A program made the translations under genes and the position numbers. Positions 24,800 to 55,870 of a DNA stretch of 56,434 bases are shown here, in pieces. The first letter of the stretch is position 1. Each line of letters starts with the position of its first letter. The stretch comes from Trichoplax sp. H2 (lineage: Eukaryota): NCBI GenBank assembly GCA_003344405.1, contig NOWV01000161.1:124001-180434 (forward strand), written 5' to 3'. A model generated the notes under the pieces. The model searched no databases, was not told where the DNA came from, and saw only the letters and a list, made by a program, of their open reading frames with translations.

Positions 24800-26240
24800 A
24801 ACCTTGTTCACCAATCAACTCGAGCGATAGTGAACCAATATCTACTGGACTGCGTTCCAAAACTCAACCCCAATACTGTACCCAAGGGAATCTTTCCACT
24901 CCGTCCAGCAACTCGTCTCTACCGTACCGTACCGAACCGAACCTTTCATCATGCTTGGATCGGTTCGTTTTTCTCTCTCGTCATCGAATCATGTGATGGT
25001 CGCACCCGCTCGCAGGACCAGTACCGTACTGGTACTGTACTGGTACTGATACCTTTGGTATCGGTACGATACCAAAGGTTGACTTGCTTGGCGTTCAGGC
25101 GATAGAGATACGATATACTGTACAGTGTACAGTACTGTAGTACATTTGTACATTGCACTGTACTACTGTACATTGTACAGTACTGCACGCTACTGTTGTC
25201 TACAGTATGCGCGTTATTACTCTAAATGTCCATGAACTACGATGGTATCGGATGGACAGACTCTTGACCAGATGCGGCCGAAAACAAAAATACTTGCTCA
25301 GTATGCATCTTCCGTGTCTGTTTTGGAAATCGCTCGTATTCATTTGAATAACATGGATGACCTCAAGTTACTGCTTCCAAGCAAAACTTAGTAACAGGCA
25401 ATAGAATACAATGTAATATTACTTAATTAATATAGCAAAAATCAGTCAATTCACAATCGACAGTCTTCATACTAAAGTGCTGTCATAATGAAGTGTTTGA
25501 TACAATTGGTTAACCAAAGTTAGCCCGGTGTCTGTCCGTCCAACGGAATGTCCAGTCCAGCAACCCTTCTCGTCGTCCATGTCCAATTGTCCGTAGACCA
25601 GCGTACAGACAGCGACTTCCAAGACTAACCAATACTGTACCTAAGAGGTTGGACCCGCTCTTTGAGCAGTATACAGCAGTGTTACCGTCATGGACTAGAG
25701 TAGTATGTGGGGAAGAACTCAGACAGACGGAATCTTTGACCAAAATGAGACCATCAGTAATGTCGAAGAATGACCACTTAGTATGGATCTTCCGTGCGTG
25801 TTTGCACTGGCACTAATTTAAATAACATCATCGATCTTATACTGTGTAGCTGTGTCCAAGAAGCACTTTATTAATAGGCAATAAGATTCACTATAATATT
25901 ACTTAATTTAGAAGAAATCAGCCAATTCGCAAACTGCATGCTTACTGTAACTCTGTAAGTACTGTTATAACCAAGTGTTTGGCATAATATTTCGACAAGA
26001 TGAGGCCAACGATGTCTGTCCGTCCAAGAGTGGTCAATCCAGGTCTTCTGGTACACGGTACAGTATAGTACAGTGCTCTACTACAAGCGGTAGTAAAACA
26101 GCCAATAAGGATCAGAAATAGCAGAAATAAATCAATAAAATAAGTAGAGAATCATTTCCACCACCGATGGATTAGTTTCTAGGCCAAATGATGAAAGCCA
26201 GTTAACATTTTGAACAGTTTAATGAATTAGTTATTCCCAA
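24800..26240. promoter_or_regulatory. Divergent promoter region between ATP6V0E and PSTK
   Basis: Head-to-head start codons at 24795(-) and 26243(+). TACAGTAC-type arrays at about 25015-25205 and 26050-26080, a hairpin at 25051-25079, and a local duplication. Confidence 0.6.
25250..26045. repeat. Diverged direct duplication (~300-bp segments, ~480-bp offset)
   Basis: Colinear shared blocks at about 25250-25560 and 25725-26045: 'agtatg(c/g)atcttccgtg', 'aggcaata..taatattacttaatt', 'aaatcag(t/c)caattc', 'aagtgtttg', 'tgtctgtccgtccaa'. Confidence 0.8.
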
Positions 26241-26242
26241 AG

Positions 26243-28777
26243 ATGGCTAGTCAGACAGTTTTACTCGCTGTTTATGGATTGCCAGGTGCTGGTAAAACAT
26301 CTTTAATTCATCGATTAATATCAGCATTGCCCAATCATGCTCAGCCATTGATCCCCATTCATATTTGTTATGACTCAATACTACCTAAGGAAATTGACTT
26401 CCAGGTAAAGGCATCACGAATCGAGTGTTAATGCATGCTATTGCATAGAAAGAGTTGCCTACAGGCTGTACAACTAGTATACTTATTATTGCAAATAATA
26501 ATGTTTTGGAGGTAAATCATGAATATGTTTACAGTATTGGTGACTTCAAGCAATGCATTACGGATACCCCATTTTGCAGCTCATGTGATTTGTAGTAGAA
26601 TTATTATTAAATATCAGCAACGATGAATGTTATTATTGTACAATCCTTATGTCGATAAGTCCTGATTTCCAGCGGTTTAGTTACAAATCATACGGATATC
26701 GGAGCTTATGCGTAAGAATCTTCTTCAAAATTGGACGATGATAGCTATCTCAGATGGCCAGTAGACGCGTAAAAGTACAGTACTACGAGTATGTCCCCGT
26801 TGGCAGTAAAAGTAGATTCTGCTGCAACCGACACAGTCCACTTCATAAGTCTTAAAAAATGCTATAGTATTGTTCCTTAATGACTCATATCGAATTGGGT
26901 GATGGTACTAGGCGCCATTAAAAGATGATCTTCTTTTAGTAGTCAATAATAGCACTATACGTGGACGAGCTTGTAATTTCACCAGAACCAGTAATTAATC
27001 ATTGACCGCAAATAGGGTTCTTGATAAATATAAGGAATCGTAATATACTATACTACTGAGCTAATAAAATCTGCTGATACGAGAAATGCAGTGATAACAA
27101 GGGCCAGAGATGACTCACGTAACCGTAGAAGTTTCAAGATACACAGTATACTGTTTTGGGAAACTAACAAGTCTTCAATCGTTTTTAGGATAGTGAAGAT
27201 ACAATATGGAAGAACATGAGGCAGCTTATTTTGGATTGTATTGAATATTATGAATGTTTTGATGATACTCTACTACCGTGGCAGACTAACCCTGATTATC
27301 GCGAAAAATGGCAAATCGTAAAAGAGATGATACAGACTGCTAAGAAAGACAGTAAAAGGTGCTATTTGTTAAAATGAGATGTCATTGTAAAGTACTTTAT
27401 ACAACGAGTTCGACAACAAATTCTAATTATATAACTCTATTATCCATGATAAAATATCGTAGGTGCCTTTATATACTAGATGATAACTTTTATTATCGTA
27501 GTATGCGATATAAGATCTATCAGCTAGCAAAGAAACGTGAGTAATTATTTCTTATTATGTGCAGTATTCATTTGCGAATGATGCTCGTAGAGATCTATTT
27601 ATTTTACATCCATTTATGCAATTGGGCCAATTTACTAGTGATAGTAGAACAGATAATCTTACAGTACTGTACATACTACCGCTTATCAGATCGTTGTGAT
27701 TATTTGCAAAGCATAATTTGTGTTGTAAAAGTATTTCGCTTCTGTACGCATAGTATTTGATTGGCATAAGTTATACCTGATTTGTTGATCATTTAACTGT
27801 ATTTAGTGTTTTATAGCATTTTAAATTGTCGTCGTACATTTATCTGGTAGATGCATGGGGATATGGTCAGATTTGGGTAAAGTGCCCTCTTGAAGTAGCG
27901 TTTCGGCGAAATTGTAACAGAGTAGTTCCAGTTGCTCAAGCAACGATTACAAAAATGGATAGCAAATTAGAAGTTGCCAATTCCAGTAAATTTCCTTGGG
28001 AAGACAATAACTTCATCTTTGAAAGTACCAATGAAGATCCTGATAATTGGTAAATTTAGATATGATAATGCATATTTTATTAGTAAGGAAAGATAGATAC
28101 ACGTTATGTAGACGCTTCACCGCTAAAATTGCTTTGCATTATAAAGTTAAAAGTTGCTTCGATTGTAAGGCTACCGTTGAAATGTTTTAAAATTTTTATT
28201 CTACTAGGAAGATGTTGCTCGATTTTACTATAGATACCTTCAGCAAGCCGGTAGTATTTATTTCTTCGACAGATGAGCTACAAAAGGTTTATAAATTAGC
28301 TAAATTAAATGGAGGGTTACTTCGTAATAGCATTTGTATTATCTGATCTGATATTTCTGTCATGCATTTGTTATTGTGGTAATTGGATAGGAGAAAGATC
28401 GATCAATTATTGCCAATAATTTCCTACATCAAGCTGATAAAATACTGAGAAAGTTAGTTTCACAATCTATACAACAATATATTGGAAAGGGTAAATATTT
28501 TTATTTTGCTTTGCTATTATTCAGTGATTCCTACTTTTGCTACCATTAATATTTAATTGTTATCTTTCGTCAAATTGTATACGTAGTAGGGAAAATAAAT
28601 TCTCAAAATATAGATATATCCAAGGAGTTCAATGATATTAGAAAGGATATTATGACAGATTTACGCCGAAATTCCAACCCACAGCTTTATCAAGTGGAGT
28701 GCACTAACACTGACGAATTACCGTCTCTACTGAATCGGATCTATACAGAAAGGTGCTTGATGAAAGGTCATGAGTAA
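26243..28777 (+). CDS. PSTK: O-phosphoseryl-tRNA(Sec) kinase (L-seryl-tRNA(Sec) kinase), 7 exons
   Basis: Exons 26243-26404, 27189-27358, 27463-27536, 27851-28049, 28208-28286, 28391-28490, 28587/28590-28777. Motifs: P-loop GLPGAGKT, ICYD, ILDDNFYYRSMRY..YQLAKK, CPLEVAFRRNCNR, KFPWE, LHQADKILRKLVSQ. Confidence 0.93.
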
Positions 28778-29874
28778 GGATGGCCAGCTATTGCTTAATA
28801 GAGTACGAGCATAGATCGTCACCAAATAATGATATCAAGGTTGTCATTACCTGACTATATGCAAACATTTCTATTGCATAGACTAAAATGCACCGATGCA
28901 TGTCATGCCATTGGTATTTATAGCTGTTTTCAGTGTCTCTAATAAAACAATAGTATCTTATTCTGTAAATAACTTATACAGAAATGTACAGTATCTTAAT
29001 ATAAGTTAATAGTACAATAAACAATAAACCATTCAATATAATATTATCGTACAAATTTTTAATGCACAATAATTTTTATACGAAGTATTAATAAATGACA
29101 ACTTGTCATATGATGCTATTTGGATTGTTATTACTGTGACAACGCGCACAGTTCTTATATAAAGCAGTAACAACAATCATTAAATTAAATTTACAATCTC
29201 AATAACCTAATACATAATTAAATATAGAATTCAGCATTTTGATGCACGTTCATGTTTGATAAGCTTTGTAACTTATAGATAAGAAACTCTTAAACAAACA
29301 AGTGGATAATCAGATGATATAAAACAGTAACCTATTGCACATATCGTATTTGCAAGGAATATAATATTCACTATGAAGATAGTAGTTTCTATTAACGCCG
29401 TATTTTAAAACATTGCTAGTCAACTAAAGGTAGGCGTACATGTGATCAATTACAAATCGACTTGAATTATGTTAATGGTAACTCATTGTGTAGTTATGAC
29501 GAAGTTGCAAACATCTAAGTTGATAGATTTGTATATTACATAAAAGATCGGCTATTAAAATGTAGCAATAACCATCAGCGGTAGCAATACATTATTAAGT
29601 TAGTTGTGAGTTCCAAATCAAGATGCCTTGATAACTATTAAAATTAGATTGCAAAAGTTGAATTTGAAATCACATTTAAAATTTTTTATAGGGTGATGCT
29701 CATCATGGCATTATGAAAAATAGACATTCTTATAATGCTCATGATAATCTTATAAGAGTCAATATGTCGAAATATCGGGAAGGTTCTATCGATATTATAC
29801 AACATAGGTATCCATTTATACCGTAAATATCTATATATATTCAGTTACACTACACTGTCATACTATAAAACTTT

Positions 29875-32800
29875 CTACTTCGATTTACTTTCTAAGTTTT
29901 CTCTGTAGTTCCTATATATAACAGATGAAAGAAATATGAATCGCAATTGCTAAGCAAGAACTCAGGTTGTCATTATTTTATGTGAGCTTACTTCCGTGCT
30001 CTTTCTATTAAAGCTTCCCTTCGATCTAATAGAGACGTAAGTCTTTCTGATGAACTTCTTCCAAAGTTCTTAGATGAGAATAAACTTCTATTAGGCTGTA
30101 AAGGACATCGATCATTTATCAATATCATTTTTGACTATGTCGCAATAGCAATATCAAATTTATCTTACTGATGTAGATATCTCATTATTTTCGGTCTTCT
30201 TAGGTGGAGTTACAGGCGTATACTTAATTCTGCCATCCAAGATTTTAGCAATAGTGTCATCAACGTTCTTAGTTATAGCTATCAGAATAACAAAGGCAGA
30301 AATTAACATCTGACACTACTTTGCTTTTTGGGGGTAGTTTTAATTCTTATAGTCACCTAAATCCTTTTGAATTACATCGTAAGGAACCTGAGGAAAAACA
30401 TCTTGCACTTGTTGCACCATCTTGGCCAGTCTGGTATCCCTGGTAGGTGTTGTGGCCTTGGGGGATTTACTGCTATCTTTTTGTGGTGTCACAGGTTGAA
30501 CAACTTCAGTTTGCGGATTATCGCTATTTATAACACCATCTAAATAGTAAAATTAAGCATAAACGATTTATATAACGCTCAATAGAAATAAATATCTTTT
30601 TTCCATCAATAAAATATATCACCGTCTGCCTGTTTTTTTATTTGGGATGCCGATAACGAAGACTGTTCAGAGACTATTGGATCACTTCGTAAATTTAAAG
30701 CCTCACTTATCTCCTGTAAACATATTGATGAAAGTTGGTAAGGAGGCAAATATAAACGTTAGCCCTTAGCTGTTAGTATACAGATATCTCGTATATCTGT
30801 TTCACAAAATACCAAATTTAATAATATATAATACCTTTCGTAATCTAAATATAGCTTTATCATTAGATTCATTTGCATCCTTTGATAAGACAGGTAAAAT
30901 ACTAGATCATGAGAGTATAAGGGTAAATATTATTATTTATCGTATTACACAAACATGGTTCATGCCTGCAGGAATGATTAGTTCATACCGTATATCATAA
31001 AATGTATAAGGAACGAAAAAATGCCACAATAGGTCTTCCCATCGATTACTGGTTCGAGTAGTCTAATAAATATTAAAATGAAGATAATGCGAATGTCACC
31101 CTTACGTCGTATCTTCCTACTGTATCGATACTAAAACAAACTACCTACCAATCTGACATAACCAAGAAATGGTCGTGTAGCTTTAATTACAATCTATATA
31201 GAATAACATAGGCAATGTCAAAATCTTGGTAAGATCATAATATTAAGTATTGCTTAGTTTACATAATACATGAATCAAGATGCTACAATAGCAACGTTCT
31301 TAACAGCAACTTCATACTCGATGTGTTTATGATCACTAAATCATTATACTTACTGGCTGTACAGAATGTTCTGTCTCGAAAACCCAATCACTGTTGAACG
31401 ATAAAATATGTAAACACGCATTTATGAAAATGTACAGTTTACGCTATGTAAACGAAATTGATTTTAAAATGATTAGAGTAAACGGTAAGCAGATTACAAA
31501 CATGAGTACAGTATATCATCGTACAATTTAAGTGCTATAAAAATTTACTGATCTCTTACCAAAATTCTAGTAAGGATTTTCCATCGGAAATAGTGCGTTC
31601 AGGGAAAAGAAGGATGGGTTGAGATAACTCTAAAGGCAATTAAGTGTCATGGTTAGTTTACATTAGGATATGAAGAAGTAGAATTTTATCTGAGAAACTG
31701 CAAGATCTTTGGGGAAGTAATTACTGCCATATTACATAAATGATCAATAATGTAACAGTCTACGTATTAGTTTAGTGACTACACACTTGCTACTCGTTAT
31801 TACTAATACTACTTTCACTATAAGATATAAATGTTGTAGAGGCATACGCGTTAGCAGAGCAATGAGGGAATGCTAGTAAGAGAGTATGAAAGTAAAGCTG
31901 TAAGATACAGTGCTCACCAGTTTTGCTTTTACAAGCCTTAAGGAATTCTTCTCTTGACGGATAATAATCTTTGCTATATGATCTATTGACCTTCATTGGA
32001 TATAAAGAATAAGTGCTACTTTAGGACTATAATCAATCTGTATGAAATCAATCATTTAAGATATACAGCAATGCATTGATTACATGGCAAAAAAAGACCC
32101 TGTATTCATTCTTCAAGTATTATGCCATAATTACAAACGCGGTGGATAACAGATTAGGAGTCCTGACTCGCTAAGCTACTACACGCTACCCTGCAGTTAC
32201 CGTACGTCAAGTTCCTTCTAAGGTAAAAATTCTATTTGCACTATTAGCACGTCTACTGAATATTACTTTCCAATGGGATACTTGGATAGTGGTCATGTAC
32301 GGTATACAATAAGGTGAAGTCATTAAAATTTCGAATCAACTAGCAACATTATCGATATTTTTAAAGGCATCGGCTGATGTACTAAACCTGTGATCGTAAC
32401 TGGAACTATTGACTCTAATTAGATACGGTATTGTTCTTTCCAGTTATTAACGTTCACACTACTTCATGGACATAAGTATTTTTAATCAAGCGAGTTAAAA
32501 CTGGTACAATTTACTGGATCCAGGAGACCAGGATCGCACAAATTGCAGTTTTGCTCAATCCTGATTACTGTACTACTGTATCCTGTATTTTTAGGCTGCT
32601 ATCGACTAAAGAATTTCCATATATCAACATGGAAAGACGACAACTCGATAAGAGCGATAAGGCTATCTATCGGCTTGATACAGAGGTTAAAACCGGGTGC
32701 AAGAGATTCGCTCAAGTATGTTCCCAACTTACTTGTAACGTCGTATTCAATACGGTAGCATCCATAACCGATACATGATTACTGACGATAACCTATACAA

Positions 32801-33359
32801 TAATATAGCATATAATACGATTAGAGAGACTTTTGATGTTGATCTAGAGATAACTTTCCACGAAGTCAACAAGCAATTTTGCCTTGATCATACCGAAAGA
32901 TTACGAACCTTGTTATTCGAGGATAACTGATGACGGCCAGAACAATGCACTAGCATACCACAAACAGCTGAAATACTTTGCAATATAAACCTACAAGAAT
33001 ATTGAAGCAAGTATCGCATGAATGACACATTTTAATCACGATCAATATATCATGGCTTTGATTGCAGGTCAATTAATCCAACCTTCTTATAGAGCCATAG
33101 TAACATGGTATGAAATGAGCAGCTAATTGCAGCTGCAGATAGACAGCAAGGCGTAAAATGAGTAGAACCAATCCAATTGGACCGTATAGCAAAAGGAAGA
33201 TTAACCGGATATCGTTTGGAAATCTATAAAAAAAATAATTCATAAATGCTTGGTTGTATGCTCAAAGTGTCCATCAGACTCTACGGATAAGTAGTCTAGT
33301 TAATGAATGATTAATCACAACGAAAGCAGACTGTTGACCAACCTAGATGGACTAGCCAT
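29875..33359 (-). CDS. AUP1: AUP1 (lipid-droplet/ERAD factor; acyltransferase-like, CUE and G2BR regions), ~15 exons
   Basis: Exons 33343-33359, 33083-33223, 32909-32990, 32733-32792, (uncertain exon near 32580-32666), 31918-31990, 31560-31629, 31354-31390, 31149-31193, 30989-31062, 30835-30901, 30623-30713, 30357-30539, 30169-30278, 29992-30095, 29875-29911. Motifs: LLLYGPIGLVLLILRL, VSNHVSVMD, PILLFPE, DLLWHFFVPYT, CUE VQQVQDVFPQVPYDVIQKDL, C-terminal ERLTSLLDRREALIERARK. Confidence 0.9.
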
Positions 33360-33699
33360 TTTTCTGCAGGTTGCAATGATGGTCAAGGCCGCACGCGTGC
33401 CGCGAACTTTATTTCCAGTTAAGGGTTTACACTGTACTGTACATGCTGTAGCGTGCCGTACAGTACAGCACCATGGACTACAACATACTGACAGACAGAC
33501 AGACTCACTGTAATCATGGGCTTCTACAGCTGGAAGCCCATGCTTTGGCTGTACGATAGACTTTACAGTACACAGTTAGATCATCGTCGGGGTCAGTCCA
33601 CCATGGAGGAGGCAATAGAAAAAAAAGCCTTTCGATGGTATTATATCAATGAAGTGAGGTGATCAGCAAGAACAGTCCAAAAATCCATACTAAATAGGT

Positions 33700-34190
33700 A
33701 TGGACTCTTCAACATGCTCGATAACCCCATACTAGATCTTGGATTTTGGTGCTTACTATTGCAATCGAGAAGATGCTAGTGGCATCATGGGGAAAGGAGC
33801 TAGAACTAGAATCAGGGAATGATGTAGAATAAGTAGCTAAATATTATCATGATGCAAATCATTTTCAACAACTGCTGCTCATTAAAGTTTGGGACGATTA
33901 TGAGTCGCTTAGGAACGATGTATTAGGTTAATAGCGATAGAGTACTTTCAAATTGATATGAGTCTCATCAAACATGCTTAATAACACTGTCGATCTTCGG
34001 TTTTGGCTCTTGCTATTCAAATCGAGTAGTTGCTATGGCATCATAAAAAGTAGCACTACAGTTTATTTATTACTAGTATCAGGAAATGGAGTATAAGTAA
34101 TTAAATTAAATACTTGATTACTTGTGTCGTGCCATTTAATTTTTTCAATCAATTATGAACATAGAGTCGTGGAAAACCTGGAACAATGAT
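33700..34190. repeat. Diverged direct duplication (~260-bp offset) upstream of AUP1
   Basis: 'aacatgctcgataac..gatcttggattttggtgcttactattgcaatcgagaagatgctagtggcatcat' (~33711) matches 'aacatgcttaataac..gatcttcggttttggctcttgctattcaaatcgagtagttgctatggcatcat' (~33971). Confidence 0.75.
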
Positions 34191-36048
34191 ATAAATAAGT
34201 TGTACTTATCGGACCTAACATAACAGTAGTAGAAAGAAAGAACTACGCTATGCCTTTCGTATATTCGCTTGATGCTCAACGCAAAAAGGCAGCTAGGGCA
34301 GCAGACAGTTACAAGACGGTTAGTACTTTACAATAGTTTAGATATTTCATCAACCAACAAACAAACAGACTTCTATTTCTATACATGTAAGGAAATTGAA
34401 GTATAAAACAGCAATGTTTATATTGCATAAGCGATGCCAACATAGAAGTACGTATATCATCAATTTCAACTTTATGGTAGTGCCTAATACACAATACTGT
34501 ACGATGGCCACGTAAAACATACACAGTATACTGCTTAGCTGATACTAATAAAGCATTACAAATCCAGGCATATCTGTTACTAACTAATCTAATGAGATAA
34601 AGATCACTGATTAGCATACAACATGGAATATATTTTATTGCATATTATAACATTGTATAGTTGATACCTTAGCTGGATAAATATCTGGTATAACAGGGAT
34701 AAATAAATATGATTATAACACAGAAGAAATACTAAAGTCGAAAATACGTACATCGTATATCAATATCAGAAATTAGCAAGGTTAAATCATAGTAGAGTAA
34801 TTAATTATCAATATAAACATTTGACGATCGATGCTGTGCGGTATTTCGGCATACAAAAAATTAAAATTACTATACAATTCTAATGCATCCGAAATATGTT
34901 TGTCGTACTGTAGGGCTTTCAACTAAGTACTCTATCAATAATTAACACATCAACGCGCACATATTTGGTATATAGCTTATATAACGATACCGCATAAAGA
35001 TACAATCAATGATTCGTAATTCCTAGTGCAATCAATTTTGTAATGTAAAGCTAAATATCGTTACATTTGACTATAGAATTGTAAAACACTCGTATCTAGA
35101 TGATAATGGCTAAAAAGTACCGTAAAATATTAGATAAATAACTTAGTAAATATCATTTGAAGTGTTATATGGCAATAAATTGTATCATGTTTTACTTTAT
35201 CTGGCTCACAATTATCGTTAATATAACATAAATGGCATAAATGACATCTGGCTGGAATACTCCTCAACAAAAATTATTTAAAATATATGTTTGCTCTCAT
35301 TGGAAAATAAAATTTTAAAGCATATTTTAATTTAATGTAAACAATAGCGTACGTGTAATTTATAGGCGCTTTAAAAATCGATATAAAAACCAATGTGAAC
35401 AATTAGCATTTAATCAATTTGTAATCTCACAATAACTAAAAATCTGGTCTAAGTTGGGTTGAAGCAATTGGGGAATGTTATCATGATAATTTAATAGTAA
35501 TTTCTACTTTTCTTAACTTAATGACAATAAAATCTATTAGTATTGGTGTACGTGATTTGCCGTTAAATTATTGTTGGTAATGTAAGAATTCGATCAAATC
35601 ACGACTGTAATAATAGAAAATACTAAAATATTAATCACTTTCAATTTCTAAAGCTAGAATTAGATGAGGAAACAGAAATTACTTCATTCTCCAATTTTAG
35701 CTTCAGTTCCTAAAGTTTAGAGCAGGGTCGGAGCTCCTTCCTGGTCATTATAGCCATATAAATATATTCCATAGATTTCATTCAACCGTTCGAATAATTT
35801 ATGGGATTAATCTTGCCATTACAGAATTAAGTCGAATGGCAATAATTCACTTCGATTGTTAAAGATATTGATAAATCACCCGTAGAGTTAGTGGTAAAAA
35901 TACTACGTAGTCATTTTTTCTTCAATTTTCATTATTTTAAATGACGATATTACTTTTCTGCTGATACCAAACGAGGATTTCGTAGTAAGTATAAGTTAAC
36001 ATGTCGTATTTTGAAACTTACTTCCTTAAAAGGTTATTCAACAGAACT

Positions 36049-39000
36049 TTAGGAGTCAATATGAATATCATTCGGCGTCGATACTGGTTCAATAGTTTCA
36101 TCGTTTATTATATTTATTTTAAGCGTATTGTCGACAGGATTGCCATTATCAGATGTAATAAAAGCAGCAGTGGGATTATCTGCTTGGTTAGTTACATTAG
36201 TCTGGGAAAAATTCTTGCTATTCTCAATTACAACTCCGCCTTCAGAAGAATCCGTGCCTTTTTCGATGCCAATATCGGTAACTCCAATATCACTGTTACT
36301 ATCATTTGCATTAAGATTTTCATTACTTTTGCTGGCTGTCAATAAATTCTCAGCAGAATTTTTAGCGGAAGTCAAGTGGGTTTGATTTTGTCCACCTTCC
36401 AGACCGTCGTCTTCTTGTGATGAAAAATCGCTCCATTTGATATCAAGTTCACTTAACTTTTCAGTAACTATTTTTTCTATACTTCGTCTTTTCATGTTAC
36501 GTTTTATCAGTTTCCTAAATACACGATCTAATCTTCTCGCAAATGTATTAACATCATCTTTTTTCAATCCAATAGCAGCAGCAGCTGTCAAGTATGCATA
36601 AGGGTAATTATTGTAATGGGATCCATAATTTTCAAATGTGACTGATCCTATTTGCTTTGTTACACCAGGGGCTATAGCTCTGACAAAAAATCGGTACATT
36701 TAGTAATGGCTAAAGAATGACTTAATAATTAATGAAATCTAGGTAATCTGTTCGTAAGTATCCATACCGAATAAAGATATGCACAAAAAAGGTATACAAC
36801 CACGTAATGTACTTATAATTTAGAAAAAAAAATACTATTTGACTTAATACCTTGCCCCAGAAATGTTTCGGGTAAAGAGCATTGACCCTAGTTCGGTTGC
36901 ATGTTTAGTAGGCATAGAAGATAATGTAATACCTATTGTTGGCGTGATAAGAGTGTAGGTTAGGAGTTACTAATCATTACAGCTAAGGTAACAACGCCAT
37001 GCCATTAAAATCAGCTAAAAAATTAGTACATCGGTCAGATACCTATAGATATTGCATTATTAGGGGTGACTAAAAGTCGTTCACCGTGAGCTGATGCGAC
37101 CTGTTGCAAGCGCTTTTGTAGATATCGATACATTCCCTAGAAAAAAAATTCGTTTCAATAATCATATAGTATAGCAAAAAGAATCTCATGTCCTGGCCAC
37201 AATATATATTTATATCTTTCCTTCGTTCTTTATATAGATATACAAATTTTAGAGTCTATTTGACGAAATATTTGTATAAGTAAGTAGTTGCAGTAGATCG
37301 CTTTGATCTGTAAGCCTTAAAGCTAGCATACTCACTTTTCGCTCTATCAGTGAATCCTTGAACCCTTCTACTCCCATTGATAGTAAAGTCACAAATAGAT
37401 CCATAACTGGAGCAGCTGACGCACGTCCTGAAATGATAATAAAAAACGTAATAGTTAATTAATGTCTGCACTTCTTTTCATTAACTGGAAATAAGTAATC
37501 CTATACCCGGATAAGTTTGGCTAATCTTGCTGATAAAACTGTCATCAAATCCTGCGATTACAGCTCCACCGACAGGAACCATAAAATTTTTGTCTGTGCT
37601 CTGAATAAATGCATCGAGCCTGCCAGAGCGTGCAGCCTTTTAAATAAAGTTTAAAAATAGTAGTAAATTAAGCAATTAATTTTCACAAACTGCCACTCTC
37701 AATAATATCAGTGTTCTACTATATTTATGTACTATGTACTGTATCTATATATTATATACTTATAAACCTGCTCTATTAGATGAGTGCATTTTGAAGACTG
37801 TAAACCATATGCATTATTAACTATGTGTGGAATCTCGAATTCCTTGCACAACTTGCCAATTGCTTCTAAACTATAAATTGTAAATTGAAATAAGATTATG
37901 TTTGATTCTCAAATTTCAATTCATGTCATGATCGTCATTGTGAACGGCGAAACCTTAATTTAGTTCAAAGCTATATTGCGTTAACATACTTTATGAAACT
38001 ATTACATAAGAATTAATACTTTATCGTACCTATCAGGAGCCCGTGGTGTAAAGCAACTTGTAGTAGTGTAAATACACAATATTTGTTCAGGCGGTATGCC
38101 TTTCAGATGTTTTTCTATCATCTGTACATCAGTTCTTAATTCATCTTCAACTAAAATATTCTCAATGACGATTGGTTCAAAGCCTATGAATGCAACATTA
38201 TCTCAGTTTACAATGACTGATTTTCAGATAGAACTATTTATAAAATTGTAGTATTTCATTAGAACGCTAAGTTATTCCTAAAGATATTCTTACCAGCTGT
38301 AAAAATAGCCTTAAAGCAAGATTTTTGATCTACTCTAGGCCAAATGATATACTTTGCTTCAGGTCTCATCTGTTTAATGGTTAGAAAGGTCAAAACCATA
38401 CTCATTCCAGTTGCCATAGGAACCACAATGCAGGAAGATGCACTCCGAACGCCTGTTACGATTTTAGAAAAGATTTTAATAGATAATTGTAGTAACGGCA
38501 TGAAAACAATATTTCATATCCACATGATCACACAGTAAAAATTGGAATTGCATTCAAGCTCCAGTAATAAGTACGGTTTATGTCATTGCAAGCTATCAGC
38601 ATAATACAGACTAGAGCAGCATAGGTAACACTAGTCATTATTGCAAATTAATGGGATCATTAATTCTACATATACACGTATATTAATAGCTAGCGTAACT
38701 TTAGTCTCAAGACAGGCATAGGAGATTGACCGGGTTGATGTAAATTGTAATACTATATCTGTATCGCATAATGCATCGAACGAAGACAAAGAGTATACTA
38801 ATGACTCTGATCTAGCTAATTAGCAATAGAGATCATTGGTTTACGGTTCGTAAAGTAATCCTATTATTGCTAATTATTAGCTCTGCTATCCCAACGGTAA
38901 GAAAGTCAACATGCGTATAAATGATGAAGCAAAAGTAAAGATATCCTGTATCTATACCTGCAATTCGAATGGCATCTAAAACCATTGCATTAGTTAGTTT

Positions 39001-42000
39001 CATCATTAGAGAAGATCCTGCAGCCTTTGGTTGTACGGCAGCAATATCGCCAGATCTTCCAATACCGTGGGCCAGTCTATCGTTATAATGATAATAATTA
39101 GCAATTTGTGTAAACAAAGACGTTGTTTACATCAAATACCAAATAGCGTAGACAGTAGCTATGAAATTATTTAAGGCATATTTATTAACATACCAGTATT
39201 GTCTGAGGTCTATAAAGAATAGTTACTGTACAGTGTTGAATAGGTACTTTCTTACGGTACAAGCTACAACTGATATTCATTGTGTACAGAATGACGGATA
39301 CGATAACAATTATAACTTCATAATTGAATTTAGAAATATAGAGAAATTCAACATCTGCCAAGTAATATGAGGCAAAATGATCTTTACTTATTTTTATAAC
39401 TGCTCATCTATTTTAGCGCTCAGTAATCATACAATATTCATTAATTAATAACCAAGGCTATTGTAACAATATTTATTATTTCTAATATGTTATATAATTA
39501 GTTTAATATTGTACCCATAATGTCTCTGAACAACAATAGGCGATGCAATTCTACCTTCTCTTTCTCCAATCCCAGCATTACCTATATTGGTGATATACGC
39601 GTAGTTTATCATGAACTGGTCAAGGCTCATTATGCTGAATAAAAAATGCGCATAAATATATTGCAATTTAAAAGATTAAGTACTGTACACAGCAAGCAGT
39701 ACTACGACTTTTGTTTTGTATCATTGCTGGCTTGGTAATTATTGAAATATTAAGATTGTACTTCAAATTTAAGAAATTGTTAATGTTGATGCAGTTTTAC
39801 AGACCTAAAAAATTATTGCTGTCCATCGTGGATATTTCGTTTAATAACATTTCGATTGTTGATCTATCCCATCCTTTGACCGGTAGCTTTTTCTACCATT
39901 ATTCAATCAACAGAAAGAATTAAATCGTTGGCAATAGATATATATATTTAAATTTAAAATAAGCAATTAATTAATAATTGGCGATAGTTATGTAGTGAAA
40001 AGATATTGTCTACATTAGCGGCGTAGTACGAAGTTAATCCCTTTATATTATATAAAAGAAAAGAGGGTTTTGTATATGACGGTTATAGAATCAAAGCGGA
40101 AAGGATATACTGTACCAACGAAAAAATTACTTTACTGTGTGTAACTGCTAATGTGGAATGCAATGTACCCTAGGGACTCATAATATGATATTACGGTATA
40201 ATTATTCTATCTGGTTATTTTAAGTGAACTTAGGAGCATTTATAGCGATAAATTTACGGCTATTATAATGATCATCCACGGCTGCTCGGTAGAGCGTCAC
40301 ATCTATACAATATACACTGGGCTAAATTATGAGCATATTCTTGCTCATCATTGAATGCATGACTTTGATCGCATTAGATTTTAAAAGAATACTTTCAGTA
40401 ATCCGGTTACAGTATCACGCCGTAATGCCTTGATTAAATTAGCGCTATTCCTCATTTTTAATTTATTCATTATTGAATATGAGCATATTAGATTACATTT
40501 ACGTTGTAAACATGACATACTTTTGGCACTGACTGTGCTATACTGTGAATTACGTGTACAGTATTTACATTGTTGCGGTAATTTTTTATTGATATTATTG
40601 GTAATTAAGAATGTTTCCACTAATTATAATCATCATTCTAGGCCTAATATCGAGCTTTGAAAAGCAATTGTAATGCTTTAAACGTGGTTTAATGGATGTT
40701 CATTCAAAGATGGTTATGTACTGTACGTGTACAGTATATGACGTTCATAGTGGTTGGACTGGATCATGAACCCCTCAAGCTCTCTAAAAAATAAGGCAAG
40801 AGCATGTACAAGAGTAGAAGCATTACGTGACTTTTGTGTCGAATGAATTAGCATACCGATATTAAACTATTTCGTAAGAGTAAATACTGTAAATTAATCT
40901 AGCGTACTATGTACAATTTTGATGTTGGTGAATAATTAAAATTATCGTTCAAGCAATTTAATATTAAGCGTTGTATCAGTGGCACACAGCTGGATTCAGG
41001 TTGATAATTATAATAGTTTCAATCTAGATGATATTAATTCATTCATAAAGGTAAGGTATTGCCTGGGGCGATTTAATCTATCGTGAAGATGCACTTAGAG
41101 GCTTTTGATGGCATGAAGAAACGACTAGAGACTATCGTTAATAGAAGACAATGGAGTACTTTGTTCCATAGTAGATTTTTGGTTATAACTGCGAGAGGTC
41201 TGGCATTGTTATTATTTGTTCTGTTGAATAATGATGGTTGTTAAAGTTCATCAATGTATTTGTTCAAAAAGCCATTAAGGTAAACTAAGTTGAGCAGTGG
41301 AGTAGCAGTGAATAAAGCAGTCTTTTCTTTTTTGTTGACGAGATAGGTTTTATTCTTTACCGTAAATCTGACAATGTAAGTTGTGGCATTAAAAATAGGA
41401 GACGTCGATAAGATTTCTGGTGGATATGCACGTACTATTCCATTTAATTAGTAATACACTATATCATAAAAAGAGATATTAATTAACATGAAATGGACCA
41501 AGTCTTAAAATGATTTTTATCGTTGTATATCGCCCCCCCCACCAAAAAAAGAGGAAGTAAAAGATGGTAGAATACAGTGATGGTAATTTTGGGACATATC
41601 TGGTGTTATCAAGTGTAATGTTTTTACTGCCGATGATACTATCTCAAGATTGAGTGACAAGGAGTGAATAAAATTGGCCATTGCTTATGATTGATCAATG
41701 CTAGAGAATACTGCCATTGATCAGATCCGATCATAGAAGCACGTCTAAATTACTTAATTAATCGATAACATGATCTGCGATAGTGAATATGTACAGCATG
41801 CAAACTAAAGAATGTATCATTGATGGCATAGCATTCTTTCTTATACAGATTATATCCTTTTTCTTGAATAAAGTATGTATGATTGTAAAACATATCATTC
41901 CTACGTATGAGTTACCATTTAGGTCTATAAACCATTTATGCGAGTACAACGATCATCATTGCAAGATAGGTTCAGCATTGGAGATGATTGAGTGCGAGGT

Positions 42001-42549
42001 TGCATCAATATTATAATCATTATTATTGTTAGTATGTATGCATTTGGTGTAACACAAGAGGGAGGTAGAAGGTAGGGGGCTGCCCCCAAATCGCTTGCTA
42101 TCCCTCTTGTCTATTTATTGATATCCTAGCTAAGAGAGGAGTATCTTGATTGACCTCATGTCAGTATTTTTAACATTAATCTGAGATGTTGACCATAGGA
42201 ATTTCACAAACATCCTCTATTGTTCTGCTTGATGTGAAGTATTATCAAATATATCATTGACAGTTTTCAGTGATTACTTTACGCTAGCTATCAAGTTAGA
42301 CGGAAGTATATACTTGGTTGGCTGTTCGAATGGTTCACTAAAACAGTGGTCACCTTTTGCGCTAATTTACCCATCAATGATACAACCCCAGTGGACAAGC
42401 AAAATGCAAACAACAATTTCAAGCAATGCACTTACATGTTCTAAGAGGATTTTAATGTAATTTTCATGAGACTTTCTCGATTGTTTTCCTTGCTCTACAT
42501 AAGTTGAAGGTAGGAAACGGCAAGCAAGAGCGAAATTTTCTACATTCAT
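36049..42549 (-). CDS. SEPSECS: O-phosphoseryl-tRNA(Sec) selenium transferase (SepSecS, SLA/LP), 12 coding exons
   Basis: Exons 42436-42549, 39805-39892, 39515-39581, 38958-39076, 38294-38452, 38030-38183, 37768-37870, 37507-37636, 37336-37427, 37043-37136, 36851-36932, 36049-36679. Motifs: [65 protein letters not shown]-lysine [42 protein letters not shown]. Confidence 0.97.
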
Positions 42550-42923
42550 ATTCTGTCATTCAAGTGGTAGAAGTAAGAGAAAATATTATTTTCAATGAAG
42601 AATTTTTCACTGCAATGGCGAATGCAAAGCGAGAGGGTTGGCCAAAGGTGGCAGTGAAGGCGAGCTGAGTGGTGCGTGTGTTGAGTAGAAAGTGAGTCGA
42701 CACTTTATAAACGTACTTACAGTATAGCGTACTGTACACTGTACAGTGTGCAGTAGTAGTACGCAGACCACAGTGTGTTCAACATGTCGAAAACTACTGT
42801 AGCATTCAGGAGATTTAGACTATAGTGTACACTGTATATCCGTATTTTCTATGGACAATACAGTATGTCTTTGCCAAGAAATCAGTCCAATCCTCTCCTC
42901 ACGCCATACTGTACAGTACCAGG

Positions 42924-43534
42924 TCAGACTGGACTCTGCAAGCTAGTACTAATGTACTGATTTTGTCTGGGCCTCAAGATTGTTTGTACTGTAGGTCAAC
43001 CGTCCGTCCGTCTGGTCTAGTACACAGTGTACAGTGCAATCGAGGAGAGAGTTCAGTATGAAAGAGGCAAATTAAGCTTTACAAATTCTTTCAGGCATTT
43101 GATTATTTCTCGTTGAATTCTACTTTGAATTGTCTATTTTAAAAAAGAGGCAAAAGAAGCAAATTGAGCTTAACAAATTCTTTCAGGTATTTGATTATTT
43201 CTCGTTGAATTCCATTTTGAATTGTCTATTTTAATGTCTTGGCAATTTTTCATTGATTTAAGGACCTCAGGCTGAACTCTGCAAGCTAGTACTGTACAGT
43301 GTACAGTACTGATTTTGTCTGGGCCTCAAGATTGTTTGTACTGTAGGTCTGTTGGACGTCCGTCTGGTCTCCTACACACTGTACACTGTACAGTGGAATC
43401 GAGGAGAGAGAGTTCAGTATGAAAGAGGCAAATTGAGCTTTACAAATTCTTTCAGGCATTTGATTATTTCTCGTTGAATTCCATATTAAATTGTCTATTT
43501 TAATGTCTTGGCAATTTTTCATTGATTTAAGGAC
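42924..43534. repeat. Recent tandem duplication in the SEPSECS/PWWP2 divergent intergenic region
   Basis: Copy 1 is 42924-43265 and copy 2 is 43267-43534, with long identical tracts ('gtactgattttgtctgggcctcaagattgtttgtactgtaggtc'). Copy 1 has an extra internal ~85-bp repeat, so 'acaaattctttcagg(c/t)atttgattatttctcgttgaattc' occurs three times. Confidence 0.92.
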
Positions 43535-44907: not shown

Positions 44908-47658
44908 ATGGAAAATCAAAAGCTCGAGGTAGGAAGCACTGCCGAGGTTAAAGTAGACCAGAAGGACAACGCTGTCATTGTCGTTTCTTTAAATTATCAT
45001 GGCGATACTTACCGTGGAGTATTAATTAATACAACCAGCACAATACAAGCTGTTACCAGCAGGTACGTAATAAATGAATATTACTATACAGGTTATTTAC
45101 TACATGCCAATCCAGAATCAGATCGATTAATAATAATATGAATTCACTTGATTGGACTGCGCTATGGATATGATGCTATTAGATCGATTGGATATTGCTC
45201 TGATAGTCCAGTAACTTTGCTAATCAATGATCCAAATGATGTAGGCCTATGAAATTAATTGATGACCAACTGTAGAGTTGCTATTTCGTTTTGTAGTTTA
45301 TGCTTACATTCAATTCCTGCTTTCGGTATCTTACCCTTATTCAACAAGTCAACATGGGTAGTGAACCCGGTAAGATAGGCAGATTTAAAAAAAAATTTTT
45401 CCTAAATCCTCTAGGATAGGACAAGGGTGAATGACCTTAGAAAATGACTTAGTTCCGATTACATTCAAACAAGTCATAAAGTGTGTCATTAGTTTGTTAA
45501 GAGATCATAATATCGATCAAATTATGATCGATCATCTGTTATCTTAGTCCAATGTTTAACTTTAACTTAAGAATGGTAGCTCAATGTCGATATCAAGACG
45601 AATAACCTTTTAACTGTGTTTGCTGTGTATTGGCTAAAGGCTATTAATTATGTTGCTGAAGATTAGCCAATGATGTACTTGATAGTACTGTACTCATCTA
45701 AATTATCCGAACTTGTAACAAGTAATTATGTTAACGATATGCAGCAATCTGCATTACTACCATCAAAAGGTCAATTACCTTGATACAGGAATGGTGAAGA
45801 AGTTTTCTTTATGCATTTATCCTGACTGCTTTGACTGTGGATCCGTCTCTACTTGTTGTAATTATAATGAATGAGTTAGTATACTGGTTAAAATAAGTGG
45901 AGAAAGCCAAATTATTCTACTCTAGTCATGTAGATAGTAAACGCAGAAAGAAGATGTATGCGTATGTAGAAATGATTAATTATTGTAAGTCGGTAACTGA
46001 TCATTGCTTTACTTGTGTGCCTGTATACAGTACTGTATGCGTACTGTATGTCTATCAAGTAGATTTGCGCTATCTCAACCACTTAGAACGGCCGATGAAA
46101 TACAGAATATTCTTGAATATCAGCCTGTTTTTACTGTTAGTCATGTCTCTTTGTCCGCAAAATTTATACATACAGCCTTTAACAGTCCATAACAAACATT
46201 CGCGTAAAAATGGAGCAATGATTAATCCACATATTTTATAGCAAAAAATTGTGGTATTATGACGCTGAAATACGACAACGTGCTCCAAAATTAAAAGTTA
46301 AAGCTAAACAAATTAATATACACGTATTGACCAACTTTCTTTTAGGATTTCGGTCCCTGCTTTATCCAAGAGACCTAAACCATTTCTTTGTAATACTGGT
46401 CATGAATTATGGTCTAATAGCCAATTGGGCGGTCAAACTTGTACTGAAATAACCACAGAAAATAATATAAAGATAGAAAAAGATAGCAAGTTTAGTCAAA
46501 ATAACAAAATTACGGGTAGGTTCATACCTTTACATAATTATAGAAATATTACAACCTAATGACGTTACCTGTTCTACTGCTTTAAACGTTCATAAAGTTG
46601 ATATTGTGTCGAGCAATATTGAAATTGAAATACTTAATGTTGCCTTATTAGGATTAACTGAGAATACTACAAAGGCACTCAATGAAGTAAAAGAGACGAT
46701 ATCTAGCAGTCATAGCAAACAGGCGATAGCTGATAGCACTAAAGACGAACAAATCACTTCACAGCAAAATGCTAATTTGACTTATAGCATCCAGGAAAAT
46801 AGTTTCAATACGCGGCAAAATATATCCCAAGTTAATGGCCAATCTGAGAGCTTGTTAGTTAACGATCACTCTTCAAAAGATATGCAGTGTACTAATAAAC
46901 GTATGCTATATGAAACAAACAGAGCGAGCAATATCACTAATCATGATGGCAATGATAATGAAGTATCCTGTCATAGCGGTGGTAGTAACAGCACCAATTC
47001 AAGTAGCAATAGGAGAAAAATGGCTAACATTAATAATAGGTATTGTCAGGGATATCATGAAATTCATAGCCAAAATAATGGACTGTCATCAAAAAGAAGG
47101 CGCCGAAGCCCGAAATTTACATCTACTTATTATTTAGCATCATCAAAGAAATCTGCTTCTATAGGCAATAGCACAATGACTAATAGTAAGATGCCCGGAC
47201 ATACTGTCGATGATATATGTAACAAGTTACATGCTGTGGCCCATTCGAAAAGAAAAAACGGTAGTGATAATCGATGCGGAACAGAAAAGAAAGTTAAGGG
47301 AATGAAAATTATAAATAGTGATAATAGTAAGACTACAGTAAAATATGATCCGAGTTGTCGCACTTTTCAAGTTGGTGATATCGTTTGGGGTAAAGTACAG
47401 GGGCATCCATGGTGGCCAGGTCGGATTGTATCACTCGATGCAACGGTTGAAGAACAACATTTGTATCCGTGTAAAGCTGTTGTTGCTTGGTATAATTCCA
47501 ATACTTGCTCAATTATATCAGCAAGAAGATTGTACGATTTCGATGAAAGTTATGACTTACGGCACATGCCTAAACGGCGTGGTGCTTATCAGAAAGCTGT
47601 CGAAGATGCCTTACTTGCTAGTCGGCAACAACAATCATTTAATGTAGTAGCTAACTGA
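44908..47658 (+). CDS. PWWP domain-containing protein, PWWP2-like (internal exon structure partly uncertain)
   Basis: Exon 1 44908-45062 (VVSLNYHGDTYRGVLI resembles the PWWP2A/B N-terminal motif). Probable exons 46063-46135 and 46346-46515. Last exon 46652-47658 has a C-terminal PWWP domain: FQVGDIVWGKVQGHPWWPGRI...VAWYNSNTCS...RRGAYQKAVEDA. Confidence 0.8.
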
Positions 47659-54995: not shown

Positions 54996-55629
54996 GGCCA
55001 AAGAATAAGAATATTTACAGTTTGCTAGAGATTAGGTAATACGTAGACGAGTATAGTAGTGGAATATTCAAGAATTCCCACTGCACAGTGTACAGTACTA
55101 CTTGTAGACAGTTTGTTATGCTCGCTATAGGTAAACGGTACTAGTACAGTACGTCTGCTCAACAATTTCTTGCTCAATCTTGTGAAACGCCAAATCCAAT
55201 TGATTTGAAACTTGTCGTTACCTTGCAACCGTGATTACCTACGGGGACAAATGTCATGATGATTGCATTCAAATGAAAAGCATCTTATGCAGTAGCTGAC
55301 ATTACTGTACATAGGCCACGACGAGGTAATTGCTAGCGAGCTATTCGGTTATCCGATTCTCGAAATAAAAACTCCAAATCATCCTTGATAATAATTAATG
55401 CGAATACAGTACAGTCATTGTAAGAAGAAAATTTCAATCGATTTAATCCTGAAGTGAGTATGATTTCTAGTTAGTCAAGAATTGACGAATTAATTATCCA
55501 TTTTATAAGCTATGGATCAAGCATGAACAGATATCAAGACCAAACTACTGTACCTGATTTGCAGTTTAAATCGCAAGAATCCTATTCAAAGTGAACTACT
55601 GGGTAAAGCTAAGTGTGAACAACAAGAGT

Positions 55630-55870
55630 TATACTAGTACAGTACTGTACAGTACTCATTAATGTACAGTATACAGTACTGTAGTACAAGGTACTGTACA
55701 CTTGTAAAGTACTGTACAGTATGCAATACGACATACGCATGCGTGTTTGATTTTACAGTATAATACTGTGTACAGTACAGTACTGCACTGGTACGCTACT
55801 GTACGGTGTATCATTACAGTACAGTGCACTGTACTGTATGCATAGTACTGTACTCTAGTCAGTACACGTT
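55630..55870. promoter_or_regulatory. Dense palindromic TACAGTAC/GTACTGTA array, putative promoter element upstream of NDST
   Basis: Many overlapping tacagt/actgta units. Perfect palindromes agtactgtacagtact (55641-55656) and tacagtacagtgcactgtactgta (55815-55838). Similar clusters lie upstream of other genes in the window. Confidence 0.55.

Follow-up and report, generated by a model that had tools for sequence, protein, structure and literature searches.

PSTK and SEPSECS lie two gene positions apart in Trichoplax sp. H2, probably as neutral neighbours within an ancient animal linkage group

Introduction

We analysed a stretch of 56,434 nucleotides (nt) from the placozoan Trichoplax sp. H2 (contig NOWV01000161.1 of assembly GCA_003344405.1, forward-strand positions 124,001 to 180,434; hereafter the window, in whose own coordinates all positions are given) in which the genes for two consecutive enzymes of selenocysteine (Sec) synthesis, PSTK and SEPSECS, were separated by a single gene, AUP1. 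PSTK phosphorylates Ser-tRNA(Sec), and SEPSECS uses pyridoxal phosphate (PLP) and selenophosphate to convert the product to Sec-tRNA(Sec), functions that are established for both families and that the Trichoplax proteins would be expected to share, judging from their conserved motifs. A preliminary description of the window had suggested that the linkage might be ancestral, or might be a selected and possibly co-regulated metabolic gene cluster of a kind rare in animals. Here, we report that the proximity of the two genes is probably neutral, having arisen within an ancient linkage group and been inherited across placozoans, and that it appears to be unselected.

Results

Layout of the locus

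The trio consisted of PSTK on the plus strand followed by AUP1 and then SEPSECS on the minus strand, all three being intact, independent, protein-coding genes. According to the gene-model coordinates, the stop-to-stop gap between PSTK and SEPSECS was 7,271 nt, in agreement with the distance of about 7.3 kb described previously, and contained one gene. The two genes were convergent, with their starts at the outer ends of the trio and a start-to-start span of 16,307 nt. As non-homologous genes of one pathway that neighbour each other with one intervening gene, PSTK and SEPSECS form a cluster in the sense of adjacency. Their convergent orientation, with 5' ends 16.3 kb apart, excludes a shared or bidirectional promoter.

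The sole upstream feature common to PSTK and SEPSECS was a near-palindromic motif pair, GTACAGTAC/GTACTGTAC, which occurred in clusters at window positions 1900–1960, 25030–25180, 33430–33460, 42730–43390 and 55090–55850. These clusters were intergenic, being located upstream of PSTK, AUP1, SEPSECS and NDST as well as near 1.9 kb, and the motifs were rare inside genes. Since the clusters also preceded AUP1 and NDST and were found near 1.9 kb, they are not specific to Sec genes but a general intergenic feature, and they may represent an element that is general in Trichoplax, either promoter-proximal or intergenic. Repeats flanking the trio, whether inverted or direct, were not found, and a mobile or duplicated unit bounded by such repeats was rejected on these grounds. 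Given the geometry of the genes, the non-specific motif and the lack of bracketing repeats, there was no indication of a shared promoter, of co-transcription or of a specific shared regulatory element.

The PSTK gene model

PSTK (26243–28777, plus strand) comprised seven exons encoding 324 amino acids (aa), which were read by hand from the sequence (26243–26404, 27189–27358, 27463–27536, 27851–28049, 28208–28286, 28391–28490 and 28587–28777). A script check of the model returned an ATG at 26243, a stop codon at 28775–28777, GT-AG boundaries at 6/6 introns and a single terminal stop, and the full-length gene ending at 28777 on the plus strand, as reported in the preliminary description, was thereby confirmed.

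The identity of the gene was supported by several searches. One exon was a 100% match to TRIADDRAFT_58609, which carries the UniRef name 'L-seryl-tRNA(Sec) kinase'. The NCBIfam model for eukaryotic PSTK, TIGR03575, matched exons 3, 4 and 6 in collinear order (profile positions 129–151, 154–212 and 244–272) with scores of 36, 47.2 and 25.2 bits when these exons were searched singly, against a cut-off of 382.35 bits that applies to the whole protein; the archaeal PSTK model came second. The spliced protein aligned to bird PSTK over residues 7–290 of 324 (E = 8e-45), and its best alignments were to proteins named PSTK. It contained a P-loop (Walker A) sequence, GLPGAGKT, at residues 12–19, together with DDNFYY at 117 and RNCNR at 155; we take the Walker A motif, the DDN-aromatic (Walker B-like) segment and RxxxR to be the motifs that define the PSTK family (TIGR03575 / Pfam PF08433 KTI12-PSTK). 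Confusion of KTI12 with PSTK was judged unlikely, given the matches to PSTK-specific models and the names of the best-matching proteins.

The C-terminal tRNA-binding domain was present, as indicated by the position of exon 6 on the family profile and by the extent of the bird alignment. This part of the protein is encoded by exons 6 and 7, which are missing (window 28287–28777) from the public TRIADDRAFT_58609 model of 247 aa, in which the exon-5 donor is read through into intron 5. The corrected length of 324 aa compares with 329 aa for the ortholog in Hoilungia, a second placozoan genus.

The SEPSECS gene model

SEPSECS (42549–36049, minus strand) was modelled with 12 exons encoding 610 aa (exons 1–6: 42549–42436, 39892–39805, 39581–39515, 39076–38958, 38452–38294 and 38183–38030; exons 7–12: 37870–37768, 37636–37507, 37427–37336, 37136–37043, 36932–36851 and 36679–36049) and was recognised by both Pfam PF05889 and TIGR03531. 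PF05889 matched 8 of the 28 open reading frames (ORFs) scanned, collinearly on the minus strand and over profile positions 7–389, with six matches above the gathering score (21.1 bits), and TIGR03531 matched four of the five pieces tested, again collinearly. TRIADDRAFT_50605 was at the top of the 32 matches of a SEPSECS exon. In our protein homology searches, Trichoplax was the one species returned for both PSTK and SEPSECS. In a junction search, all junctions were GT-AG and 459 of the 460 residues of TRIADDRAFT_50605 were reproduced. The sole difference, V250I, was a position at which the window encodes Ile and TRIADDRAFT_50605 has Val (window 37821–37825), and the window is thus not letter-identical to the reference annotation. 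Exon 1 was located 2.5 kb upstream of exon 2 and outside the family models; it corresponded to residues 1–38 of the public Joint Genome Institute (JGI) model and matched the N-terminus of sea-urchin SepSecS (45% identity, E = 4e-6).

Two alternatives were found for the 3' end. Read-through of the last exon to the stop at 36049 gives a protein of 610 aa that ends in a 150-aa low-complexity tail rich in N, S and D. In the public JGI model, the transcript is spliced after 36502 to a small exon near 35715–35641, giving 484 aa. The Hoilungia ortholog, at 583 aa, favours the long tail. Thus, the identity and strand given to SEPSECS in the preliminary description hold, while its end at 36049 depends on read-through of the last exon, the public model splicing onwards to about 35.7 kb.

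An STDKNF motif with the PLP lysine was located at residues 281–286 of the SEPSECS model. In an alignment of 11 SepSecS sequences, which includes the Trichoplax protein, K284 was invariant, and R75, Q105 and R313 were invariant or nearly so; we take these four to be PLP-binding, phosphate-binding or active-site residues of SepSecS. Just upstream of the SEPSECS start, window positions 42954–43534 contained local direct repeats of 83–113 nt with 73–96% identity and spacings of 92–352 nt.

Gene order in Hoilungia and in a 49-genome table

In the annotation rows available for Hoilungia hongkongensis (PMC6067683), braker1_g04385, g04386, g04387, g04388 and g04390 are annotated as PSTK, AUP1, SPCS (SEPSECS), PWWP2A and NDST, with g04388 named PWP2A_MOUSE and g04390 named NDST3_HUMAN; g04389 was not among these rows. 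The order PSTK, AUP1, SEPSECS, PWWP2, NDST is the same as that in the window, so that the proximity of PSTK and SEPSECS recurs in another placozoan, with adjacency holding provided that the consecutive gene numbers share a contig. The same source gives a mean gene collinearity of 73.6% and ~34 genes per syntenic block for the two placozoan genomes. With such a baseline, an identical order in Hoilungia is the default expectation and is uninformative with regard to selection.

We also consulted the microsynteny data tabulated for 49 genomes by Robert et al. 2022 (supplement file 4 of PMC8851819); all statements about this table refer to the 30,623 rows listed, which include sections for Bilateria, Metazoa, Parahoxozoa and Planulozoa and contain 66 Trichoplax and 64 Hoilungia rows. 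Blocks in this table are defined by at least three orthologs, at most five genes in between and node filters, such that a conserved trio qualifies and a bare pair is invisible. The orthogroups of PSTK, SEPSECS and AUP1 (OG0006909, OG0005412 and OG0006404) had 3, 4 and 1 rows, respectively. Every one of these rows belonged to block 6645 or block 3522, both labelled 'Vertebrata novel', PSTK being in one and SEPSECS in the other, and none of these orthogroups appeared in a Bilateria, Metazoa, Parahoxozoa or Planulozoa block. With Hoilungia at baseline and no block above the vertebrate level, conservation of the linkage beyond neutral expectation was not found. Searching the supplements of Simakov et al. 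2022 (PMC8809688) by gene name for a linkage-group assignment gave no match, and in the part of PMC5330540 available the term 'gene cluster' refers to bacterial genes. Our literature search found no paper describing PSTK–SEPSECS linkage in animals.

Vertebrate segments carrying PSTK and SEPSECS

The vertebrate 4p and 10q26 segments belong to what is called the '4/5/8/10 paralogon'; human AUP1 lies on 2p, and NDST paralogs lie on human 4q, 5q and 10q. In the table of Robert et al. (PMC8851819), the frog rows of block 6645, which resembles 10q26, place PSTK together with IKZF5, ACADSB, BUB3, C10orf88, CTBP2, PWWP2B, STK32C, DPYSL4, JAKMIP3, PPP2R2D, GPR26 and CLRN3. Block 3522, which resembles 4p, contains SEPSECS on human chromosome 4, where the preliminary description had put it, together with CLRN2; in chicken and mouse it also contains CTBP1, STK32B, CRMP1, JAKMIP1 and PPP2R2C, with GPR78 in chicken. 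The two blocks share at least seven orthogroups (OG0008189, OG0003275, OG0003274, OG0001051, OG0002980, OG0001448 and OG0003424), and the STK32, DPYSL/CRMP, JAKMIP and PPP2R2 families form a contiguous run in chicken and an almost contiguous one in frog. Taken together, blocks 6645 and 3522 look like duplicates of one older segment that arose when the genome doubled in early vertebrates.

Relatives of other genes in the window were found in the same blocks of this table. PWWP2B belongs to the PSTK block (6645) in both frog and turtle, and chicken AUP1 lies on chromosome 4 inside block 3522, about 256 table rows from SEPSECS (rows 24448 and 24704), which hints that AUP1 too was part of the same ancestral segment. 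There were no rows for NDST1–4 or PWWP2A. The shared paralog orthogroups and the presence of PWWP2B in the PSTK block point to a shared chromosome segment for PSTK and SEPSECS prior to the vertebrate duplications, and the pre-duplication ancestor would thus have carried both genes on a single segment. On the simplest reading, the Trichoplax segment represents in its entirety a piece of a single ancient linkage group, and the vertebrate genes were split by reciprocal loss after duplication. The proposal that the linkage is ancestral is therefore partly supported: it finds support at the scale of a chromosome segment, and this support does not extend to the 7-kb distance.

Searches for other Sec machinery

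The preliminary description had pointed to the flanks of the trio as the place to look for tRNA-Sec, SEPHS, EEFSEC and SECISBP2. Inside the trio, all 31 ORFs of at least 50 aa located in intergenic or intronic sequence lacked a Pfam match. Among flanking ORFs of at least 55 aa, five of 116 had one, namely two MFS exons (10.4–12.6 kb), a PWWP ORF, a TPR exon and an NDST ORF. ARAGORN, which reports tRNA-SeC in 15 of the 50 archaeal loci described below and thus on archaeal, not eukaryotic, tRNA-Sec, found no tRNA in the whole window. Rfam gave no match in the whole window at the gathering score and, between 24 and 45 kb at E ≤ 1, a single chance-level microRNA match only. By the ORF Pfam screen, ARAGORN and Rfam, there was no sign in the window of SEPHS, EEFSEC, SECISBP2, tRNA-Sec or a SECIS element, with the limit that short exons would escape the screen.

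AUP1 and the flanking genes

AUP1 (ancient ubiquitous protein 1), a gene of endoplasmic-reticulum-associated degradation that is unrelated to Sec synthesis, is the sole recognisable gene between PSTK and SEPSECS, as had been described. It occupied about 29988–33243 on the minus strand, with an ATG at 33243 and a stop codon at 29988–29990. The exons identified were 33243–33083, 32990–32909, 32792–32733, a CUE exon within 30340–30552 and a C-terminal exon running to the stop (middle exons partial), with possibly one further small exon down to about 29.87 kb. Exon 1 encodes a hydrophobic N-terminus and exon 3 an H-x4-D motif (NHVSVMD); there was no Pfam acyltransferase match at exon level, and a language-model search with exon 1 gave no usable match. 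The CUE domain scored 26.1 bits in Pfam (cut-off 21.1), and its best match in the PDB was the CUE domain of human AUP1 (2ekf, E = 0.002), with the AMFR CUE domain nearly equal. The tail was basic and helix-like and resembled a G2BR (UBE2G2-binding) segment by eye, with no PDB sequence match at E ≤ 1. The strongest support for the assignment is positional, in that AUP1_DANRE (E = 9e-40) is the annotation of the Hoilungia gene numbered between the orthologs of PSTK and SEPSECS.

Beyond the trio, a PWWP2-type gene was located at 46477–47655 on the plus strand, 4 kb beyond the SEPSECS start, as an open frame of 393 codons with a PWWP domain at residues 300–380. This ORF scored 56 bits with Pfam PWWP, and its best single-domain PDB match was human PWWP2B (4ld6, 68 bits, vs ~38 bits per DNMT3B domain). 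An NDST gene at 52371–55031 on the minus strand consisted of one open frame of 887 codons matching Pfam HSNSD-CE (309 bits), HSNSD_N (95 bits) and Sulfotransfer_1 (90 bits). Both are thus single long open frames, unlike the intron-rich Sec genes.

Linkage of PSTK and SepSecS in archaea

A SepSecS alignment of 11 proteins was used to collect 50 loci, most of them from Bathyarchaeia and Asgard-type metagenome-assembled genomes (MAGs), from a prokaryotic genome collection. A hidden Markov model built from six eukaryotic PSTK proteins was then searched against the 1,529 stop-to-stop ORFs of at least 90 aa in these loci, which included flanks of up to 10 kb. A PSTK-like ORF was detected in 22 of the 50 loci (E of 1e-18 or better), tblastn giving the same 22. 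Flanks extended to the full 10 kb in 19 loci, of which 11 had such an ORF. ARAGORN identified tRNA-SeC at 15/50.

The PSTK-like ORFs were of two kinds. Fourteen were long (555–790 aa), of which 11 shared the strand of SepSecS and lay directly upstream of it, at a distance of no more than 85 nt or overlapping; these upstream ORFs of ~706–790 aa (L015, L021–L024, L032, L034, L035, L040, L045 and L050) often had tRNA-SeC just downstream. The two tested members of that group, L023 and L050, matched both PSTK and SelB, which indicates that the long upstream ORFs are PSTK-SelB fusions. TIGR03574 matched 12 of the 12 archaeal ORFs tested at 124–216 bits (curated cut-off 290.5), and all five long ones tested matched selB above cut-off. 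Fusions of PSTK and SelB are also mentioned in PMC9499178, in agreement with these ORFs. The other eight PSTKs were stand-alone. Four of them (Thor-type L020, L026, L029 and L030) were convergent with SepSecS at ~0.84 kb, with tRNA-SeC in between and the whole arrangement within ~2.9 kb, and in Freya-, Jord- and Atabeya-type loci PSTK was 4.8–5.4 kb from SepSecS. No PSTK was found within 10 kb of SepSecS in two complete Loki-type genomes or in Hel- and Borr-type loci with full flanks. These results indicate that PSTK/SepSecS linkage is a real and recurrent prokaryotic theme, operon-like and with the tRNA included, and that Bathyarchaeia and several Asgard lineages, unlike the two complete Loki-type genomes in the sample, commonly have PSTK (in many cases fused to SelB) physically linked to SepSecS and tRNA-Sec.

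Two loci with bacterial labels were noted. In a MAG labelled Putridiphycobacter (L046:10001–11769), a SepSecS that was 38–45% identical to that of Trichoplax was split into five pieces by gaps of ~30–60 nt resembling short introns; this is probably eukaryotic DNA or a chimera, and no PSTK was found within 10 kb of it. In a locus labelled Deferrimicrobium (L049:7462–9637), a SepSecS of archaeal/eukaryotic type had tRNA-SeC 0.8 kb downstream, which could be due to mis-binning or lateral transfer.

Discussion

The explanation that we consider probable is one of neutral inheritance. Both genes would derive from one ancient animal linkage group, which later became the paralogous 4p and 10q26 segments of vertebrates; placozoan gene order within this group would happen to put PSTK and SEPSECS two positions apart, and that order would then have been passed on to both placozoan genera. 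Each gene would have its own promoter at an outer end of the trio, without an operon, a shared promoter or additional Sec machinery in the vicinity. This explanation predicts that a single segment carried PSTK and SEPSECS until the vertebrate genome duplications, after which reciprocal loss separated them, and it would make the locus a neat illustration of pathway partners becoming neighbours by chance within ancient linkage groups.

Several points weigh against neutrality. The chance that one named pair lies within two gene positions is ~4/11,500 (3.5e-4), and ~1% if PSTK and SEPSECS are assumed to lie on one linkage group of ~500 genes, both figures being arithmetic, not permutation, from approximate gene numbers (~11,500 genes) for a pair picked post hoc from a scan. 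PSTK and SEPSECS act consecutively on the same tRNA, linkage could be favoured in a pair of this type, and the corresponding linkage is frequent in archaea. On the vertebrate side, the shared orthogroups were looked up as presumed paralog pairs (6/6 found) without a random-block control. Finally, the negative result from the synteny table is of limited weight, since it extends to the listed rows and a bare PSTK–SEPSECS pair in another phylum would be invisible in the table.

Pure coincidence, in which a rearrangement in the placozoan lineage joined the two genes and the relationship between the vertebrate 4p and 10q26 segments is irrelevant, seems unlikely to us. By a rough estimate from assumed numbers, a scan of the ~23,000 gene pairs within two positions of each other would be expected to yield about one or more pairs of pathway partners by chance, and linkage of PSTK and SEPSECS was found in no non-placozoan species in the literature search or among the listed rows of the 49-genome table. 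However, vertebrate relatives of the neighbouring genes (PWWP2-type, NDST and AUP1) occur in the same paralogous segments, with PWWP2B in the block of PSTK and chicken AUP1 in that of SEPSECS. The selected cluster that the preliminary description had envisaged, in which proximity is maintained by a shared chromatin neighbourhood or enhancers and by matched expression, would be one of very few animal pathway gene clusters and a handle on the dosing of Sec-tRNA synthesis. Consecutive pathway enzymes two gene positions apart, their identical order in a second placozoan genus and the clearly favoured linkage in archaea (22/50 SepSecS loci with PSTK in the flanks) are what such selection might produce, but the genes are convergent, 16.3 kb separate their promoters at the two outer ends, an unrelated gene lies between them, no other Sec component was detected in the 56 kb and the conservation in Hoilungia is at the genome-wide baseline. 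Furthermore, there is no block above the vertebrate level among the listed rows of the table, and the vertebrate genes are, as a matter of general knowledge, on different chromosomes without known harm. We consequently regard a selected, possibly co-regulated cluster as quite improbable.

Older origins of the tight linkage were also considered. An ancestral animal (or older) two-enzyme Sec cluster that echoes the Asgard-type clusters, maintained through selection for matched dosage in placozoans, which rearrange slowly, and broken up in vertebrates by reciprocal loss onto the 4p and 10q26 copies after two genome duplications, is in our estimation very improbable. It is harder still to credit an archaeal relic, that is, a prokaryote-type Sec cluster that came from the archaeal ancestor of eukaryotes and was never broken up in the placozoan line. 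The Asgard-type loci L020, L026, L029 and L030, with SepSecS, tRNA-Sec and PSTK in ~2.9 kb and with SepSecS and PSTK convergent as in Trichoplax, recall such a state, as do the Freya-, Jord- and Atabeya-type loci with PSTK 4.8–5.4 kb from SepSecS. Nevertheless, the window has no tRNA-Sec, linkage within 10 kb was absent from the two complete Loki-type genomes and from Hel- and Borr-type loci with full flanks, and placozoans are the only eukaryotes in which linkage was shown, the intron-bearing and eukaryote-like L046 having no PSTK within 10 kb. Survival of an unselected two-gene linkage for so long would, moreover, be very unlikely.

The analysis yielded corrected Trichoplax gene models, with PSTK extended to 324 aa from the public 247 aa and a candidate revision of the 3' end of SEPSECS.

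Among known systems, the archaeal Sec clusters and the bacterial selABC operon, which is described in PMC5330540, invite comparison, as the same two enzyme families are physically linked in archaea and in Trichoplax. The archaeal genes are co-oriented or less than 1 kb apart and include tRNA-Sec and often SelB, which fits co-transcription, whereas the Trichoplax genes are intron-rich and convergent, have an unrelated gene between them and are without tRNA-Sec or EFSec. The locus can also be set beside metazoan microsyntenic or gene regulatory blocks (Irimia et al. 2012, PMC3514665; PMC8851819): three unrelated orthologs that neighbour each other in two genera formally constitute a three-gene block, but the Trichoplax trio belongs to no block above the vertebrate level among the rows listed, and no architecture of developmental regulator and bystander is evident. 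A further likeness is to the conserved macrosynteny between placozoans and bilaterians, in which content is kept and local order is free, since SEPSECS, PSTK and relatives of the PWWP2-type gene and, in chicken, of AUP1 are all found in blocks 3522 and 6645. In this comparison, what distinguishes Trichoplax is that two members of one pathway stand two positions apart, an arrangement that macrosynteny alone does not predict.

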